NCBI RefSeq assembly: GCF_041886205.1
Contig: NZ_CP169029.1
Length of the DNA stretch: 64,000 nt
Origin: Escherichia coli
Lineage (GTDB): Bacteria; Pseudomonadota; Gammaproteobacteria; Enterobacterales; Enterobacteriaceae
Strand: one strand, 5' to 3'
The stretch's first letter is position 1. Every line of letters starts with the position of its first letter. A model generated the notes under the pieces. It ran no database searches. It saw only the letters and a program-made list of their open reading frames with translations, and was not told the DNA's origin. The position numbers and the translations under genes are program-made. Positions 54,054 to 64,000 of this stretch are shown in pieces.

Positions 54054-54875
54054 TTATAAGGAAATGGCAGAATACTCTGTGTTTATCCATGAGTGTTCCT
54101 TTTCCCAGGTGAATATCCATTTACGTACTGGTCCGGCCATCACGTTAAGGTAATAACTGTCATACCCGGCCATCGTCGCCACCGGGTGGTACCCTTTCGG
54201 CACCATGACCACGTCACGGTTATAGACCGCCATACATTCATCAAGTGTGCGGTCATCGGTATACACCCGCTGCATGCAGAACCCCTGTTCCGGGTTGAGG
54301 CGATGGTAATAGGTCTCCTCCAGATAGCTCTCCTGAGGCGGGTTATTCGTATCGTGTTTATGGCTCGGGTACGAACTGGTACAGCCTTCGTTGGTCCAGA
54401 CCTCGACGACCAGCAGGCTGTCAGCGGGCTTGTCTTCCGGCAAAATATTATGCACATAACGCTGGTTGTGGCCGTTACCGCGCGCTTCGCCATCGATATC
54501 CTGAGGTGCAATCAACCGCGTCGGGTATGTCCCTTTTCCCGGAGCGGTACAGACTGCCAGCTCCAGTTTCGTCAGCGCCTTCACCTGCACTGCCTCCTGC
54601 GGGGTGACGTAAACTGCCCAAGGTTTGATGCGCTCGAACGGGCTCATCCGCTCCCCGATATCAGTAAACTGTGCAGAAGGAGTGCTGATGAAAGCGCGCC
54701 CGGCCACCAGCACCAGACAGCGCTCTTCACTGACAGCGGGCAGCGTCAGTTGCTGCCCTTCCTCAAGTTCATAGGCCTCAAAGCCAACATATCCCCATCC
54801 GGCGCTTTCCGGCGTGACAGACTGAGTCCGCCCCTCAGCGTTCGGCTGTTGCCAGCGTGATAACAAACGTGACAT
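54054..54875 (-). CDS. iolB: 5-deoxy-glucuronate isomerase
   Basis: 273-aa ORF; last gene of co-directional iol cluster. Confidence 0.8.
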   Translation of the reverse strand: MSRLLSRWQQPNAEGRTQSVTPESAGWGYVGFEAYELEEGQQLTLPAVSEERCLVLVAGRAFISTPSAQFTDIGERMSPFERIKPWAVYVTPQEAVQVKALTKLELAVCTAPGKGTYPTRLIAPQDIDGEARGNGHNQRYVHNILPEDKPADSLLVVEVWTNEGCTSSYPSHKHDTNNPPQESYLEETYYHRLNPEQGFCMQRVYTDDRTLDECMAVYNRDVVMVPKGYHPVATMAGYDSYYLNVMAGPVRKWIFTWEKEHSWINTEYSAISL

Positions 54876-54884
54876 GTCACCTCC

Positions 54885-55775
54885 TCAGATAAGCCCGGCG
54901 TCGCGCGCCAGGCGGCTCAGATTGTTATATCCCAGACGGGCGTAGGTCAGCGGATGGGCGATCGCCGGGTCCTGTTCAGCCTCCACCACCAGCCAACCGT
55001 GATAATCCTGCGTTTTCAGCAGTTGCATAATCGGCGGATAATCCACGCAGCCGTCACCCGGCACGGTAAACACGCCGCTCAGCACCGCGTCGAGGAAGCT
55101 GGTTTTACGGTTTTTGACGTCCGCCAGCACGTCGGCGCGCACATCTTTGCAGTGAACATGATTGATGCGCGATGCCCATCGCTGTGCCACCGCCAACGGA
55201 TCGGCCCCGGCAAAGGTCAGGTGGCCGGTATCCAGCAGTAAACCAACCTCCTCACCCGTGTGGAGCATCAGGTTGTCCACGTCTTGAGCGGACTCAATCA
55301 CCGTGCCCATATGATGGTGGTAAGCAATCTGTACCCCCTGTTGCTGCGTATAGCGGGCGAACACGGTGAGCTTCTCACCATACTCTTTCCAGCATTCCTG
55401 CGGGAAACGTGGGCGCAGGTGAACCGGCGTCTGCTGCTCACCGTGAATGCAGCCACTCACTTCCGCAAAAACCAGTACTTTTGCACCCAGCTCTCGCAGC
55501 AGCGTCAGATGCGACTGCACAGCAGCAATCTCGTCCTCTACACTGCGTTCCAACAGGCGGCCGGAATACCAGCCGGAGACCAACTGCAGGTCGTGGCGCT
55601 GCAAAATGGGGCCGAGCAGGCGCGCTTCTCGCGGGAATTTATTGCCCAGTTCGAAGCCGGCAAAACCGGCCTCTTTCCCTTCACTCAGGCAGGTCTCCAG
55701 AGATGTCTCCGCGCCCAGTGAAGGCAGATCATCGTTCGTCCACGTCAGCGGGTTGATGCCCAGTTGTACACTCAT
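54885..55775 (-). CDS. iolE: Inosose dehydratase (sugar-phosphate isomerase/epimerase TIM-barrel)
   Basis: Start taken at MSVQLGINPLTWTNDDL preceded by GGAG; xylose-isomerase-like fold. Confidence 0.8.
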   Translation of the reverse strand: MSVQLGINPLTWTNDDLPSLGAETSLETCLSEGKEAGFAGFELGNKFPREARLLGPILQRHDLQLVSGWYSGRLLERSVEDEIAAVQSHLTLLRELGAKVLVFAEVSGCIHGEQQTPVHLRPRFPQECWKEYGEKLTVFARYTQQQGVQIAYHHHMGTVIESAQDVDNLMLHTGEEVGLLLDTGHLTFAGADPLAVAQRWASRINHVHCKDVRADVLADVKNRKTSFLDAVLSGVFTVPGDGCVDYPPIMQLLKTQDYHGWLVVEAEQDPAIAHPLTYARLGYNNLSRLARDAGLI

Positions 55776-55786
55776 TGTCGTCTCCA

Positions 55787-57691
55787 TTATGCGTGTCCGC
55801 GCTCGCGCCACCAGGCGATAAGCTGCAGGTAGTTGTCCCGGATGCGCGCCACCAACTGCGCATCGTCAATATCGTATTTCAGCCATGCGCGGGAGGCATC
55901 GCCAAACAGCGTGCGCCCCACGGCGAAGCCTTTCACCAGCGCCTGCCCCGCGGCAGCTTTGAAGTCGGCACGCAACTGTTCCGCCGGAGCATCCAGACCG
56001 AGGATCACCACGCCGCGGCAGTGCGGGTCCCGGCGCGCGATAATCTCGCTCAGTGCCGTCCAGCCTTCGGCGGAGAGCGGCGGCAGTTTCCACCAGTCGG
56101 GGTAAATGCCAAGGTTGTAGAAGCGGGAAATGGCACGCAGATAAAGTTCGTCACTGCGCGGCATAGTGGCGGGTAATATCACCTCCAGCAGCAGTTCATG
56201 TCCGGACTGACAGCAGGCGTGGTACACCTCGGCGATTTTCTGCTCCTGCTCCAGACGCAAGCCGTGGGCATCTTCCGGATGGAAAAAGACCAGGCACTTC
56301 ACCACATGCTCCTGCGGCCAACTGATAAGCTGGGTACCAATGTTACCGTGCTCCATCTCCAGCGGACGCGAGCCTGGCAGTTCAATGGGACGACCAATCC
56401 ACCACCCTTCGCCGGTAATGGCGTTCAGCGCATCCTGACCAAAGGTGCCATCGCACAGCAGGCCGGCTTTCCCCTCCAGCCCGGCAGAGCTTGCCGCCTC
56501 TCGGCTGGCCTGCAGGATCAGCTGTTTCAGCGCCGGAATACGCTTAAGCGACGCGCCGCACTGCAGCGCCATATCTTCCAGTTGACTGCGGTGATCGAAC
56601 GCCATCACGCACAGCTCCGGCCATTCGCGGCGGCGGGTGGTCACCCGGTGCAGATGGTTAAGACGCGGGTCAATGTCCGGGCGCGGAACGAGCGCGGCGC
56701 GGGAGAGGTAATCATCCAGCTCAATTTTGCTCGGCATCGCCGGTGCACAGCCGTGGCGCGAGACCACCAGCGCCCCACAGGCGTTGGCGTAGCGGCACGC
56801 CTGTTCCCAGCCCTCGTCGTTCAGGTAACCGCGCAGCAGGCCAGACATAAACGCATCTCCCGCGCCAAGGACGTTAAGCACCTCCACACGCACGCCGGTC
56901 ACCGTCAGGCCGTCATCCAGCCGAGGTGGAATGGCATCGGTATACACCGAACAGCCCAGCGCGCCGCGCTTGCAAACCAGTGTCGCCTTGCTGACGTGGC
57001 GCACCTGCGCCAGCGCCTGCAACGTATCGGTGCTGCCCCCCGCAATGTGAAACTCCTCTTCGGTGCCGACAACGACGTCGAAAAGGTGTAGCACCTCCTG
57101 AAGTTCACGGGTAACCTGTTCGGCAACGATAAAACGCGTTTCGCCGTCTCCTAGAGAGGTTAGTCCCCACAGCACTGGACGGTAGTCGATGTCCAGCACC
57201 GTGCGCACGCCGTGACGGCGGGCGTAATTCAGCGCCGTCAGCACCGCCTCGCGGGTCTGCGGGTGAGAAAGGTGAGTCCCGGTGATGGCAATACACCGTG
57301 CGGAGGCAATGTAGCTTTCGTCCACATCGCTGGCAGTAATCGCCATATCCGCGCAGTTATCGCGATAAAAAATCAGAGGAAAGGTGTCCCGGTCTTTAAT
57401 GCCGAGTAGCACCAGCGCCGTGAGGCGTTCTTTATCGGTGATCAGATGGCTGGTATCGCAGCCCACCTGGTTTAACTCTTCCCGCAGGAAGCGCCCCATA
57501 TGTTCATCGCCAACGCGCGCCAGCATTGACGAGCGTAAGCCCTGACGCGCGGTACCGTACGCCACGTTGCCGGACGAGCCGCCGAGATATTTGGCGAAGC
57601 TCGACACATCCTCCAGGCGGGCACCAATCTGCTGGCTGTAGAGGTCTACCGCCACGCGGCCCATGCATATCACATCAAACTGCTTTTCCAC
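55787..57691 (-). CDS. iolC: 5-dehydro-2-deoxygluconokinase fused to DUF2090-like aldolase-type C-terminal domain
   Basis: 634 aa; N-terminal PfkB-family carbohydrate kinase (MEKQFDVICMGRVAVDLY..., GAGDAF motif), long C-terminal extension. Confidence 0.8.
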   Translation of the reverse strand: MEKQFDVICMGRVAVDLYSQQIGARLEDVSSFAKYLGGSSGNVAYGTARQGLRSSMLARVGDEHMGRFLREELNQVGCDTSHLITDKERLTALVLLGIKDRDTFPLIFYRDNCADMAITASDVDESYIASARCIAITGTHLSHPQTREAVLTALNYARRHGVRTVLDIDYRPVLWGLTSLGDGETRFIVAEQVTRELQEVLHLFDVVVGTEEEFHIAGGSTDTLQALAQVRHVSKATLVCKRGALGCSVYTDAIPPRLDDGLTVTGVRVEVLNVLGAGDAFMSGLLRGYLNDEGWEQACRYANACGALVVSRHGCAPAMPSKIELDDYLSRAALVPRPDIDPRLNHLHRVTTRRREWPELCVMAFDHRSQLEDMALQCGASLKRIPALKQLILQASREAASSAGLEGKAGLLCDGTFGQDALNAITGEGWWIGRPIELPGSRPLEMEHGNIGTQLISWPQEHVVKCLVFFHPEDAHGLRLEQEQKIAEVYHACCQSGHELLLEVILPATMPRSDELYLRAISRFYNLGIYPDWWKLPPLSAEGWTALSEIIARRDPHCRGVVILGLDAPAEQLRADFKAAAGQALVKGFAVGRTLFGDASRAWLKYDIDDAQLVARIRDNYLQLIAWWRERGHA

Positions 57692-63432: not shown

Positions 63433-63621
63433 AACGGCTCCCGGTGTTGATGAATGCGGTGAACTAACGACACTACAAATAAAACATTTATTTCATTTTT
63501 ATAAATAGTGAAAATTATATTTTGAGTGACAGTTAACACTTTTGAGATGTATTAGATAAATTTTGTTATCAATCTCACAACGCCGAGGAAGATATGTCCC
63601 TCCATTACAAGGGGGGGAGGG

Positions 63622-63665
63622 AATAAAAACTGTACCATCCCCTCTCCCGTTGGGAGAGGGGATGG
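63622..63665 (-). terminator. Rho-independent terminator after iolD
   Basis: 14-bp stem CCATCCCCTCTCCC / GGGAGAGGGGATGG (63635-63665) with T-run on the minus strand. Confidence 0.55.
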
Positions 63666-63716
63666 GTGAGAGGAAAAAAGAAAAATGAAATGAAAATTTC
63701 GTTACGACAGGAAAAC

Positions 63717-64000
63717 TCAATACTGACGAGCTTTTTTCACCTGAGCCTGTGTTTGCTCGGCGGCCTGGCGCACTGCTGGCGACTCTGCCACCTGTGCGTT
63801 GCCGGTTCGCCACCATGACGCGTAATCATGGGTCATGGTTTTTGGTAGCACTTTGATGTCGAGGAGCGTCGGTCCCGGGTGAGCGCGCGAGGCTTCCAGC
63901 GCCGCCAGCAGGCTTTTCTCATTATGTACCCGCCATGCGCGGCAACCGTAGCTTTCCGCGTTTTGCGCAAAATCGACCTTCACCAACGGCCCGTCAAGCT
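63717..64000 (-). CDS. iolD: TPP-dependent 3D-(3,5/4)-trihydroxycyclohexane-1,2-dione hydrolase, C-terminal part; gene continues beyond window end
   Basis: C-terminal 89 aa; assignment from context upstream of iolG and the rest of the iol cluster. Confidence 0.65.
   Translation of the reverse strand, partial: LDGPLVKVDFAQNAESYGCRAWRVHNEKSLLAALEASRAHPGPTLLDIKVLPKTMTHDYASWWRTGNAQVAESPAVRQAAEQTQAQVKKARQY

Follow-up and report, generated by a model that had tools for sequence, protein, structure and literature searches.

Positions 54054 to 64000 of the window (the whole 64,000-nucleotide stretch of Escherichia coli DNA analyzed here) hold most of what we take, with a probability of roughly 0.85, to be a self-contained, horizontally acquired module for the uptake and catabolism of myo-inositol, of the Enterobacter/Citrobacter type and with the pathway and two-unit control described below. 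In full, the module would comprise iolR and, divergent from it, iolA-iolD, and then iolG, the genes for a binding protein, an ATPase, and a permease, a Gfo/Idh/MocA dehydrogenase gene, iolC (encoding a kinase-DUF2090 fusion), iolE, and iolB. It should enable a rare subset of E. coli (~1%) to take up and burn myo-inositol, a sugar-alcohol of plants. The finding is an ordinary one and adds no new biology, given that the module, its low frequency in E. coli (<2%), and the fused kinase-aldolase had already been annotated and published.

An earlier note on this DNA had described a co-directional inositol catabolism and ABC uptake cluster, carried as island cargo. Gene models and context agree with this description: the order from the partial iolD to iolB is as claimed, all genes lie on the minus strand, and all ORFs in 54054-64000 are intact (Table 1). 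The identities of iolB, iolE, and iolG are based on NCBIfam equivalog models with curated cutoffs, TIGR04380 aligning to iolG end to end, and the iolD fragment aligned to the final 90 positions of the model for IolD in the NCBIfam profile search. The iolD reading frame is cut by the window end; in ZYB62, a strain with 99.98% identity across window positions 39000 to 64000, iolA, a full-length annotated iolD, and a divergent, RpiR-type iolR come directly next. Thus, iolA is missing from the window, as had been noted, only because the window stops too early, and a search for iolA and iolR places both just past its end in such near-identical genomes. For the binding protein, a 433-aa ORF call was judged to be an overextension, and the 309-aa form with a signal peptide was taken instead.

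Table 1. Features of the iol module and its flank in the window
Feature	Coordinates	Strand	Basis or remark
iolD 3' end, last 93 codons + stop; THcHDO acylhydrolase	63717-64000	-	TIGR04377 positions 526-615 of 616
Terminator-like hairpin + U-rich tail	63620-63665 (stem 63635-63665)	-	52 nt after iolD stop
Conserved 16-nt motif TGAAATAAATGTTTTA	63480-63495	-	First base 63 nt upstream of iolG ATG
iolG, myo-inositol 2-dehydrogenase, 328 aa	62446-63432	-	TIGR04380, 440.9 bits vs cutoff 355; RefSeq agrees
Periplasmic solute-binding protein, 309 aa, Sec signal peptide	61485-62414	-	Structure matches 4rxm, 4irx
ABC ATPase, two fused nucleotide-binding domains, 515 aa	59886-61433	-	AraG/XylG/RbsA-type models and annotation
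ABC permease, 342 aa	58846-59874	-	RbsC/AraH-type models and annotation
Gfo/Idh/MocA dehydrogenase, 377 aa	57704-58837	-	5ya8 match
IolC, 634 aa, GTG start	55787-57691	-	PfkB + DUF2090
IolC N-terminal PfkB domain, residues 6-321	56729-57676	-	PF00294, TIGR04382, PDB 2qcv
IolC C-terminal DUF2090 domain, residues 324-631	55799-56722	-	PF09863, NF047869
iolE, myo-inosose-2 dehydratase, 296 aa	54885-55775	-	TIGR04379, 428.7 bits vs cutoff 290; annotation agrees
iolB, 5-deoxy-glucuronate isomerase, 273 aa	54054-54875	-	TIGR04378, 321.5 bits vs cutoff 205; annotation agrees
Short hairpin AAAAGGGGA-AUGAC-UCCCCUUUU	54013-54035		18 nt after iolB stop; read from sequence
AT-rich flank	50856-54012		Shared homology of island contexts begins at 50856
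Hypothetical ORF	52419/52461-52886	+	Annotation, in AT-rich flank
MarR-family pseudogene	~51289-51789	+	Annotation, in AT-rich flank

From these identities we infer enzyme activities that would form the following route. Myo-inositol would be imported by the IbpA/IatA/IatP-like ABC system and oxidized by IolG to scyllo-inosose, which IolE would dehydrate; ring opening by IolD would yield 5-deoxyglucuronate, and IolB would isomerize this to 2-deoxy-5-keto-gluconate (DKG). The PfkB half of IolC would then convert DKG to DKGP, the DUF2090 half would cleave DKGP into DHAP and malonate semialdehyde, and IolA, encoded just outside the window, would turn malonate semialdehyde into acetyl-CoA. Another inositol stereoisomer, e.g., scyllo-inositol, probably enters the same path through the extra dehydrogenase.

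Among solved structures, the binding protein comes closest to 4rxm (E = 1.4e-135) and 4irx (E = 3e-70), both presumably inositol-type binding proteins, and it stays below the cutoff for every ribose, allose, and xylose binding-protein model in NCBIfam. Judged by its sequence, it is IbpA-like, probably with myo-inositol as its ligand. The ATPase, with full-length AraG-, XylG-, and RbsA-type matches, and the permease, with RbsC/AraH-type matches, likewise remain below all NCBIfam cutoffs; we class them as an IatA-like member of the CUT2 family and as IatP-like, respectively. Genetic evidence shows that Caulobacter needs ibpA-iatA-iatP to grow on inositol (PMC2597717). The extra dehydrogenase matches 5ya8 (E = 1e-96, 44% identity) and conserves K103, D188, H192, and H319, while Arg178 and Tyr163 of the characterized scyllo-inositol dehydrogenase are replaced by H175 and H160; against the levoglucosan dehydrogenase model it scores 365 bits, below the cutoff of 650. 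By homology, it is placed in the Pl-scyllo-inositol-dehydrogenase/levoglucosan-dehydrogenase subfamily and is probably a second dehydrogenase for an inositol isomer. The presence within the operon of this relative of a broad-specificity scyllo-inositol/L-glucose dehydrogenase, together with transporter parts that fall below the cutoff of every named NCBIfam transporter, would also fit a different main substrate, be it scyllo- or D-chiro-inositol, a methylated inositol, or L-glucose entering via the extra dehydrogenase. This is highly improbable, however, given that IolG scores above the inositol 2-dehydrogenase equivalog cutoff, that the binding protein is nearest to the two presumed inositol-type structures, and that the downstream enzymes are those of the canonical myo-inositol path.

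IolC had been described as a PfkB kinase fused to a C-terminal domain that may substitute for a separate aldolase, and its two domains bear this out. The kinase half matches PF00294 (Pfam, E = 1.8e-44) and the IolC structure 2qcv (E = 2e-51), the protein reaches 430 bits against TIGR04382 in NCBIfam (cutoff, 300), and a GAGD motif is readable in the translation; we assign this half as a 5-dehydro-2-deoxygluconokinase on these matches. A domain search of the C terminus returned DUF2090 (PF09863 in Pfam, E = 4.6e-147), which resembles class I aldolases, and the protein scores 942 bits (cutoff, 600) against NF047869, “bifunctional kinase/aldolase,” which is also its NCBI name. An AF2 model of the domain (pLDDT 95.9) shows eight beta-alpha units arranged as a TIM barrel, with 8TNF (a sulfohexulose-1-P aldolase) and LacD (tagatose-bisphosphate aldolase) as top Foldseek matches and with class I FBP aldolases also among the best structural matches; the domain profile finds LacD at E = 1e-8. 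Residue K465 never varies, at least 90% of sequences retain E503 and K535, and the K465-E503 spacing of 38 residues equals that of K493/E531 in BPHYT_RS13910 and of K126/E164 in LacD (PMC9007349).

Price et al. (PLoS Genet 2022, PMC9007349) put DUF2090 forward as the missing DKGP aldolase and took its conserved Lys and Glu as catalytic; IolC-DUF2090 fusions are needed by nine bacteria to grow on myo-inositol, and DUF2090 co-occurs with inositol use, being fused to IolC in 16 of 26 utilizers, whereas IolJ is found in only 2 (PMC9007349). Those fusions (e.g., BPHYT_RS13910; NF047869) share the architecture, the Lys/Glu pair, and its spacing with the E. coli protein, but in the latter the function is transferred by homology. 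Fold match, conserved residues, NF047869, and the published proposal point to a class I aldolase-like TIM barrel that is a predicted DKGP aldolase. Alternatively, DUF2090 might be regulatory or another lyase, and a housekeeping class II enzyme (FbaA or GatY/KbaY, IolJ-type) might cleave DKGP: B. subtilis does rely on the class II aldolase IolJ, for Caulobacter a housekeeping FBA was suggested by Boutte et al. (PMC2597717), the Pfam entry still reads “uncharacterized,” and no biochemical assay of aldolase activity in DUF2090 turned up in the literature. We nevertheless consider this very unlikely, since the fold and the Lys/Glu pair are of the class I aldolase type, the nearest solved DUF2090 protein, 8TNF, is itself an aldolase, the fusion is far more frequent than IolJ among utilizers, and NCBIfam curators label the kinase-DUF2090 protein bifunctional.

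The earlier note had further proposed a likely single operon with short gaps. This holds from iolG to iolB, where the genes are co-directional and tightly spaced (gaps of 31, 51, 11, 8, 12, 11, and 9 nt), but not at the iolD-iolG junction, whose spacer of 284 nt is not short and contains both a strong hairpin and a conserved motif. The hairpin after iolD, already recognized in that note, is real: its 14-bp stem with 10 G-C pairs (-28.6 kcal/mol, z = -5.26) is followed by the U-run UACAGUUUUUAUU in the chromosomal allele, and loci of Lelliottia and Enterobacter have it as well. The IncF plasmid allele keeps the stem via a compensatory AT-to-TA change but has lost the U-run, for which reason the hairpin may be a REP-like stabilizer rather than a terminator. 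The motif TGAAATAAATGTTTTA lies in an AT-rich 27-nt block that is 100% identical among the E. coli chromosomal, IncF plasmid, and Y. ruckeri plasmid alleles, even where coding DNA is just 78% identical. With up to 2 mismatches allowed, 51 of the 66 species loci have it upstream of iolG (0.08 in shuffles), and it is kept across Enterobacterales, from Enterobacter to Photorhabdus; the motif also occurs upstream of iolA in 26 of 56 loci (<0.5 in shuffles). The sister site upstream of iolA is TGGAATATTTGTTTCA; across 40 kb of L001, TGRAAT-N4-GTTTYA is matched exactly at these two sites only. It is tempting to regard TGAAATAAATGTTTTA as a putative operator for the RpiR-type IolR in the iolG promoter region.

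Given the hairpin with its U-run after iolD and the AT-rich, motif-bearing region before iolG, two IolR-controlled units are more likely than one uninterrupted transcript: an IolR-repressed iolA-iolD unit that would end or be attenuated at the hairpin, and an IolR-repressed iolG-to-iolB unit that would start downstream of TGAAATAAATGTTTTA. Alternatively, the ten genes from iolA to iolB could form one operon read only from the divergent iolR-iolA promoter, with the hairpin as a REP-like stabilizer or weak attenuator and no start before iolG. All genes are indeed co-directional, the minus strand of the spacer showed no sigma-70-like promoter in a consensus scan, and the hairpin lacks its U-run in the IncF allele and turns up again in related loci, as a repeat element would. 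Still, we find this arrangement rather unlikely in view of the spacer length (8 to 51 nt elsewhere), the G+C-rich stem and U-run of the chromosomal allele, the conservation of the 27-nt block beyond that of coding DNA, and the recurrence of the motif at iolG and at the iolA promoter. Nor is the run terminator-free at its end, as had been suggested: a short hairpin with a U-run (-12.8 kcal/mol, z = -2.5; a plus-strand entry in the terminator scan) closely follows the iolB stop and could serve as a bidirectional terminator-like operon end. The AT-rich flank beyond accompanies the iol genes in every chromosomal context (serX, argW, and afa-8 islands).

That the inositol capacity was acquired is supported by GC content, which is 55 to 62% per iol gene and 57 to 61% in 2-kb windows versus 33% in the adjacent flank (52 to 54 kb), and by its rarity: the allele family was matched in about 51 to 53 of 5426 complete E. 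coli genomes (~1%), and iol-positive E. coli genomes make up <2% (Weber & Fuchs 2022, PMC9430895). Eight further E. coli genomes carry an IolC allele of ~70% identity, possibly of the Salmonella/ED1a type. The module occurs in at least three E. coli island contexts, here in the chromosomal serX tRNA-Ser island, flanked on either side by IS debris, and a more divergent allele resides on IncF plasmids. Its closest relatives, at about 90% DNA identity, are in Lelliottia, Enterobacter, and Citrobacter, and all 10 kb align collinearly with chromosomal loci in these genera and in Yokenella, Edwardsiella, Cedecea, Yersinia, Pectobacterium, and Dickeya. Among species-representative genomes none is closer than ~90% DNA identity.

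The cluster might also be a silent passenger, silenced by H-NS or devoid of a needed activator: it is foreign DNA beside 33% GC sequence and IS debris, in this allele the neighboring MarR gene is a pseudogene, and the Salmonella iol island is under H-NS control with very long lag phases (PMC10783015, PMC5349611). We found no experiment in the literature that shows E. coli with this allele growing on myo-inositol. Yet the nine ORFs are intact and at least 99.2% conserved in 44 chromosomal carriers of varied lineages, hosts, and island contexts, which argues for purifying selection and makes the absence of a phenotype quite unlikely.

Among known systems, Enterobacter, Lelliottia, and Citrobacter chromosomal loci, E. 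coli IncF plasmids (e.g., p14EC033c), and a Yersinia ruckeri plasmid have an identical gene order from iolR to iolB, align over 10 kb as one collinear block at 85 to 90% DNA identity, encode IolC proteins 95 to 96% identical, and share the operator-like motif and hairpin; the present locus differs in its chromosomal, IS-flanked serX setting. The acquired enteric iol islands of Salmonella Typhimurium (GEI4417/4436) and E. coli ED1a (PMC9430895) also encode an IolR of the RpiR type and share the catabolic chemistry, but they carry MFS transporters (IolT), reiD, srfJ, and duplicated iol genes, none of which occur in the compact, ABC-based module. The Caulobacter crescentus/Sinorhizobium meliloti system (IbpA-IatA-IatP, IdhA, IolCDEB, IolR; Boutte et al. 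2008, PMC2597717) likewise combines a CUT2 importer, in the order binding protein-ATPase-permease, with a fused long IolC and an RpiR/SIS-family repressor. A palindromic operator is shared as well, of the GGAA-N6-TTCC type there and putatively TGRAAT-N4-GTTTYA here. The sites here are AT-richer, however; moreover, alpha-proteobacteria keep transporter and catabolic genes at separate loci, and the compact E. coli module has an additional Gfo/Idh/MocA gene. Bacillus subtilis iolABCDEFGHIJ encodes the same pathway steps (IolG-E-D-B-C-[aldolase]-A). It has a short IolC, the separate class II aldolase IolJ, a DeoR-type IolR, and MFS uptake. Unlike B. subtilis, the E. coli module has its predicted aldolase as a class I-type domain joined to the kinase.

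The nine co-directional minus-strand frames that the earlier note had described at 54054-64000 were confirmed by their open reading frames, gaps and base composition. Start positions were reset from the mechanical calls to ones bearing a ribosome-binding site, and these agree with the RefSeq annotation of an identical genome; GC per gene is 55 to 62%, whereas the 2 kb on the left side have 33%. The short gaps noted earlier hold for the run from iolG to iolB (31, 51, 11, 8, 12, 11, and 9 nt), but not for the spacer between iolD and iolG, which measures 284 nt. Both iolB (321 bits; cut-off, 205) and iolE (429 bits; cut-off, 290) score as NCBIfam equivalogs, iolG is identified as the inositol dehydrogenase gene of the cluster by 440.9 bits against a cut-off of 355 (TIGR04380), and the iolD fragment matches the final 90 positions of the IolD model.

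Positions of the features discussed, ordered from left to right along the window
Feature	Position	Strand	Remark
tRNA-Ser(GGA) (serX)	11917-12004	+	Left end of mosaic island of >52 kb
Type I restriction-modification operon and M48 peptidase gene	28134-37484	+
M gene	28134-30572	+
S gene	30566-31921	+
DarT/DarG pair	31934-32590, 32575-33654		Between S and R
R gene	33673-36768	+
MarR-family gene	~51289-51789	+	Internal stop
Hypothetical gene	52419-52886	+	141 aa
Terminator-like hairpin	54013-54035		18 nt past iolB stop
iolB	54054-54875	-
iolE	54885-55775	-
IolC gene	55787-57691	-	634 aa
Gfo/Idh/MocA oxidoreductase	57704-58837	-	377 aa
Permease	58846-59874	-
ABC ATPase	59886-61433	-
Periplasmic binding protein	61485-62414	-
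iolG	62446-63432	-
TGAAATAAATGTTTTA motif	63480-63495	-	Starts 63 nt upstream of iolG ATG
iolD hairpin	63635-63665	-	52 nt past iolD stop
iolD 3' end	63717-64000	-

That iolA is absent from the window, as noted earlier, was borne out, and a search beyond its end places the gene just outside. In ZYB62, an E. coli strain 99.98% identical over window positions 39000-64000 (the left part of the window differs), the sequence continues directly with the rest of iolD, iolA (encoding a CoA-acylating methylmalonate-semialdehyde dehydrogenase), and a divergent MurR/RpiR-type regulator. Complete iolB, iolC, and iolE in the window, together with an iolD that is full-length in ZYB62, make up the gene set by which an inositol catabolic gene cluster (IolCatGC) is defined (Weber & Fuchs 2022). 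Because the remainder of iolD, iolA, and the regulator adjoin, the route from uptake to acetyl-CoA and dihydroxyacetone phosphate (DHAP) would be complete in one module of ~14 kb, which is predicted from its gene content to give a minority of E. coli a complete myo-inositol route. The searched literature held no growth phenotype on myo-inositol for E. coli carriers of this allele.

For uptake, the cluster encodes three sugar ABC components of the CUT2 type, none of which reaches the cut-off of any named NCBIfam system. Among solved structures, the binding protein is nearest to 4rxm (E = 1.4e-135) and 4irx (E = 3e-70), which we take to be binding proteins with myo-inositol bound, from Mannheimia and Caulobacter (IbpA), respectively. 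The importer genes follow the order binding protein, ATPase, permease, which is that of IbpA-IatA-IatP, and inositol growth of Caulobacter genetically requires ibpA-iatA-iatP (PMC2597717). Homology and gene order thus point to an IbpA-IatA-IatP-like system as a putative myo-inositol importer.

The oxidoreductase encoded between the permease and IolC shares 44% identity with 5YA8, the scyllo-inositol/L-glucose dehydrogenase of Paracoccus. Its residues K103, D188, and H192, together with H319, are identical to the catalytic Lys106/Asp191/His195 and the swap-loop His318 of the subfamily described by Fukano et al. (2018). At the positions of the substrate-gating Arg178 and of Tyr163 it has His175 and His160, so that the specificity of the Pl-scyllo-inositol dehydrogenase cannot be transferred to it. 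The most economical guess is that the enzyme would act as a second inositol-isomer dehydrogenase. Levoglucosan dehydrogenase was considered as another assignment and ruled out (NF052479, 365 bits against a cut-off of 650).

IolC combines a PfkB kinase (PF00294, residues 6-321 by Pfam) with a C-terminal domain that a domain search identified as DUF2090 (PF09863, residues 324-631, model positions 1-309 of 310, E = 4.6e-147). The kinase part scores 430.5 bits with TIGR04382 (cut-off, 300) and matches PDB entry 2qcv at E = 2e-51, while the whole protein reaches 942.5 bits, against a cut-off of 600, with NF047869, the model for bifunctional 5-dehydro-2-deoxygluconokinase/5-dehydro-2-deoxyphosphogluconate aldolase. 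A single-sequence phmmer search of the PDB with the DUF2090 domain gave no match; the aldolases came into reach only with a 34-sequence profile and a predicted structure. DUF2090 homologues (n = 1418) are mainly fusions of ~620-650 aa, with some stand-alone proteins of ~300 aa; 34 diverse domains were aligned, and the alignment served both as search profile and as AlphaFold2 input. With E-values of about 1e-8, the profile matched a DUF2090 protein of solved structure and the LacD tagatose-1,6-bisphosphate aldolases. The predicted structure (pLDDT 95.9) contains eight strand-helix units, and Foldseek matched it to 8TNF (sulfohexulose-1-phosphate aldolase) and LacD with probability 1.00 and TM-scores of 0.71 to 0.77; class I fructose-bisphosphate aldolases and YihT were further matches. 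As modeled, the DUF2090 domain is a (beta/alpha)8 barrel like class I aldolases.

The conserved Lys/Glu pair of the domain agrees with this fold. Across the 34 diverse homologues K465 is invariant and both E503 and K535 are kept in at least 90%, the three lying on model strands 4, 5, and 6, respectively. The VK and LE motifs of LacD align to K465 and E503 (LacD equivalents, Lys126/Glu164), whose spacing of 38 residues is that of the Lys/Glu pairs in LacD and BPHYT_RS13910 (PMC9007349). K535, in a WWK motif, is a candidate Schiff-base lysine; the LacD profile alignment ends before the WWK region. The suggestion of the earlier note that the C terminus of IolC may stand in for a separate aldolase is therefore right, and it had already been published: Price et al. 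(2022, PMC9007349) found IolC-DUF2090 fusions to be important for myo-inositol growth in nine bacteria and put DUF2090 forward as the missing aldolase for 2-deoxy-5-keto-gluconate phosphate (DKGP). The literature searched yielded no biochemical assay of DKGP cleavage to DHAP and malonate semialdehyde. The kinase-aldolase fusion is the commonest predicted answer to the “missing IolJ” step in Proteobacteria, and carriers such as ATCC 8739 offer a convenient E. coli genetic system for proving the fused aldolase.

The genes had been read earlier as a single operon with a terminator-free end. The second part of this reading fails, as a terminator-like hairpin closes the operon after iolB. Regarding the first part, iolD is followed by a G+C-rich 14-bp hairpin (-28.6 kcal/mol, z = -5.3) with stem arms CCATCCCCTCTCCC/GGGAGAGGGGATGG and then UACAGUUUUUAUU. 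Downstream lies an AT-rich stretch with a 27-nt block that is 100% the same in the chromosomal allele of the window, the IncF plasmid allele, and the Yersinia ruckeri allele, while the coding DNA of these three alleles is only 78 to 89% identical. Among 66 species loci, 51 have the core of the block, TGAAATAAATGTTTTA, ahead of iolG with at most 2 mismatches (search zone, 320 nt upstream of iolG; shuffle expectation, 0.08), extending across Enterobacterales to Photorhabdus, Xenorhabdus, and Providencia. A sister site, TGGAATATTTGTTTCA, is located upstream of iolA, outside the window, at 28223-28238 of the compared iol locus L001, and is present in 26 of 56 loci. The iolG and iolA sites are the sole exact matches to TGRAAT-N4-GTTTYA in 40 kb of L001; the local resemblance between these two promoter regions is, taken alone, modestly significant (18 of 1000 shuffles reach the score).

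A regulator to bind these sites would be at hand, given that a MurR/RpiR gene is divergent from iolA just past the window end in identical genomes. The operator of the alpha-proteobacterial RpiR-type IolR is GGAA-N6-TTCC (PMC2597717); sought as such, this motif is absent, and the related, AT-richer motif is present. It is likely that the 16-nt motif represents a putative operator of the RpiR-type IolR. We know of no description of an enterobacterial IolR operator of the TGRAAT-N4-GTTTYA type.

Taken together, the hairpin, the conserved 27-nt block, the iolG motif, its sister site at iolA, and the likeness to the alpha-proteobacterial operator favor, at roughly 65-70%, two IolR-controlled units, one comprising iolA and iolD and the other running from iolG to iolB, over the single operon. 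Alternatively, transcription may read through from iolD with internal re-initiation, which is quite possible for three reasons. First, a scan for the sigma-70 consensus detected no minus-strand promoter in the iolD-iolG spacer, and we infer the putative iolG promoter there from conservation only. Second, the IncF allele (plasmid locus L003, 18533-18553) keeps the hairpin stem through a compensatory AT-to-TA change and has lost the U-run. Third, the hairpin recurs in iol loci of Lelliottia, Enterobacter, and Cedecea (L006, L011, L013, L022, and L024), and may act as a REP-like element instead of purely as a terminator. An Rfam scan of 50000-64000 (E <= 0.1) returned no known RNA family, which argues against a riboswitch or small RNA in the spacers.

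The view that the cluster is acquired capacity in E. coli stands, given its rarity, its foreign GC content, and the collinear loci in other Enterobacterales. The 10-kb iol region was matched in 53 of 5426 complete E. coli genomes, which agrees with a published iol-positive share of <2% (PMC9430895). This IolC gene occurs in 51 E. coli genomes, 44 times on the chromosome (at least 99.2% identity) and 7 times on plasmids (~90%), and a third IolC-DUF2090 allele, of ~70% identity, in 8 further genomes. With one genome per species considered, the fused IolC is found throughout Enterobacterales, Vibrionaceae, and Aeromonas, its nearest relatives being those of Lelliottia, Enterobacter, and Citrobacter (95 to 96% protein identity). 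The whole 10 kb is collinear with the chromosomal loci of these three genera at 85 to 90% DNA identity, and with those of Yokenella, Edwardsiella, Cedecea, Yersinia, Pectobacterium, and Dickeya at 75 to 82%. The architecture is thus ancestral in Enterobacterales and reached E. coli by import; the representative genomes (one per species) do not include the exact donor.

The setting is a tRNA-associated genomic island, as indicated by tRNA, integrase, and foreign base composition. All DNA to the right of serX is island material, with IS remnants flanking the iol genes on both sides, and in ZYB62 a tyrosine recombinase (integrase) adjoining ycdU marks the far end, beyond the window. By comparison with ZYB62, the island also carries CP4-like genes (cbtA/yeeU, yeeS, and an antirestriction gene), Ag43, dynamin-family, patatin-like phospholipase, and RdcB-family genes, and several copies of IS66, IS3, and IS110. 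Within its type I restriction-modification operon lies a DarT/DarG DNA ADP-ribosyltransferase toxin-antitoxin pair, and an M48 peptidase gene follows; all of these names are taken from the ~98.9%-identical ZYB62 annotation.

A segment of ~17.7 kb, starting at window position 50856 and containing the MarR gene, the hypothetical gene, iolB through iolA, iolR, and a transposase remnant, is >99% identical in three chromosomal contexts (compared loci L005, 12298-32514, and L086, 9073-27084). These are the serX island of the window strain and ZYB62; in ATCC 8739, a laboratory and QC strain with an intact iol copy, an island at tRNA-Arg next to yfdC that has its own integrase; and in APEC E123, an island that also holds Druantia, afa-8, and F17 genes. 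The MarR-family gene, interrupted in the window, is intact in APEC E123 and ATCC 8739, and together with the hypothetical gene it lies in 33%-GC DNA that always accompanies the iol genes. The second allele (89% identical) resides on conjugative E. coli IncF plasmids, and an allele of 78% identity on a Y. ruckeri plasmid.

Cattle, calves, and chickens account for many of the chromosomal carriers, an impression only, as denominators are lacking, and the plasmid carriers come from pigs and humans. Myo-inositol is plentiful in plant-based diets via phytate breakdown, and phytate-rich feed releases free inositol. It is tempting to speculate that the ~17.7-kb segment may be a livestock-gut adaptation whose active spread among E. 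coli of bovine and avian origin is under way, given that it occurs on IncF plasmids and in at least three contexts of tRNA or pathogenicity islands, of which one has the adhesin genes afa-8 and F17 alongside. Likewise, the Gfo/Idh/MocA enzyme, with His at the Arg178 and Tyr163 positions, may widen the range of the operon to a rare sugar or an inositol isomer that has so far not been tied to the pathway. Taken together with TGRAAT-N4-GTTTYA as the enterobacterial IolR operator, these ideas seem to us rather unlikely. The module could be of consequence where bacteria compete for niches in the guts of cattle and poultry, and virulence islands and IncF plasmids may carry it along.

Overall, the cluster is an ordinary, known kind of acquired catabolic island that had been read correctly and in which every gene, including the bifunctional IolC, is already annotated correctly in RefSeq. 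The residual interest is modest and concerns the predicted aldolase activity, the substrate range of the additional dehydrogenase, the operator-like site with its conservation, and the movement of the module among E. coli associated with livestock. The module belongs to the ABC-type iol clusters of enterobacteria, and it shares its working scheme with the Caulobacter/Sinorhizobium module and the B. subtilis pathway. In contrast to B. subtilis, with its separate class II IolJ, a class I-type aldolase domain is here fused to the kinase, and unlike the Salmonella/ED1a island (PMC9430895), the module does without MFS transporters, reiD, and srfJ.
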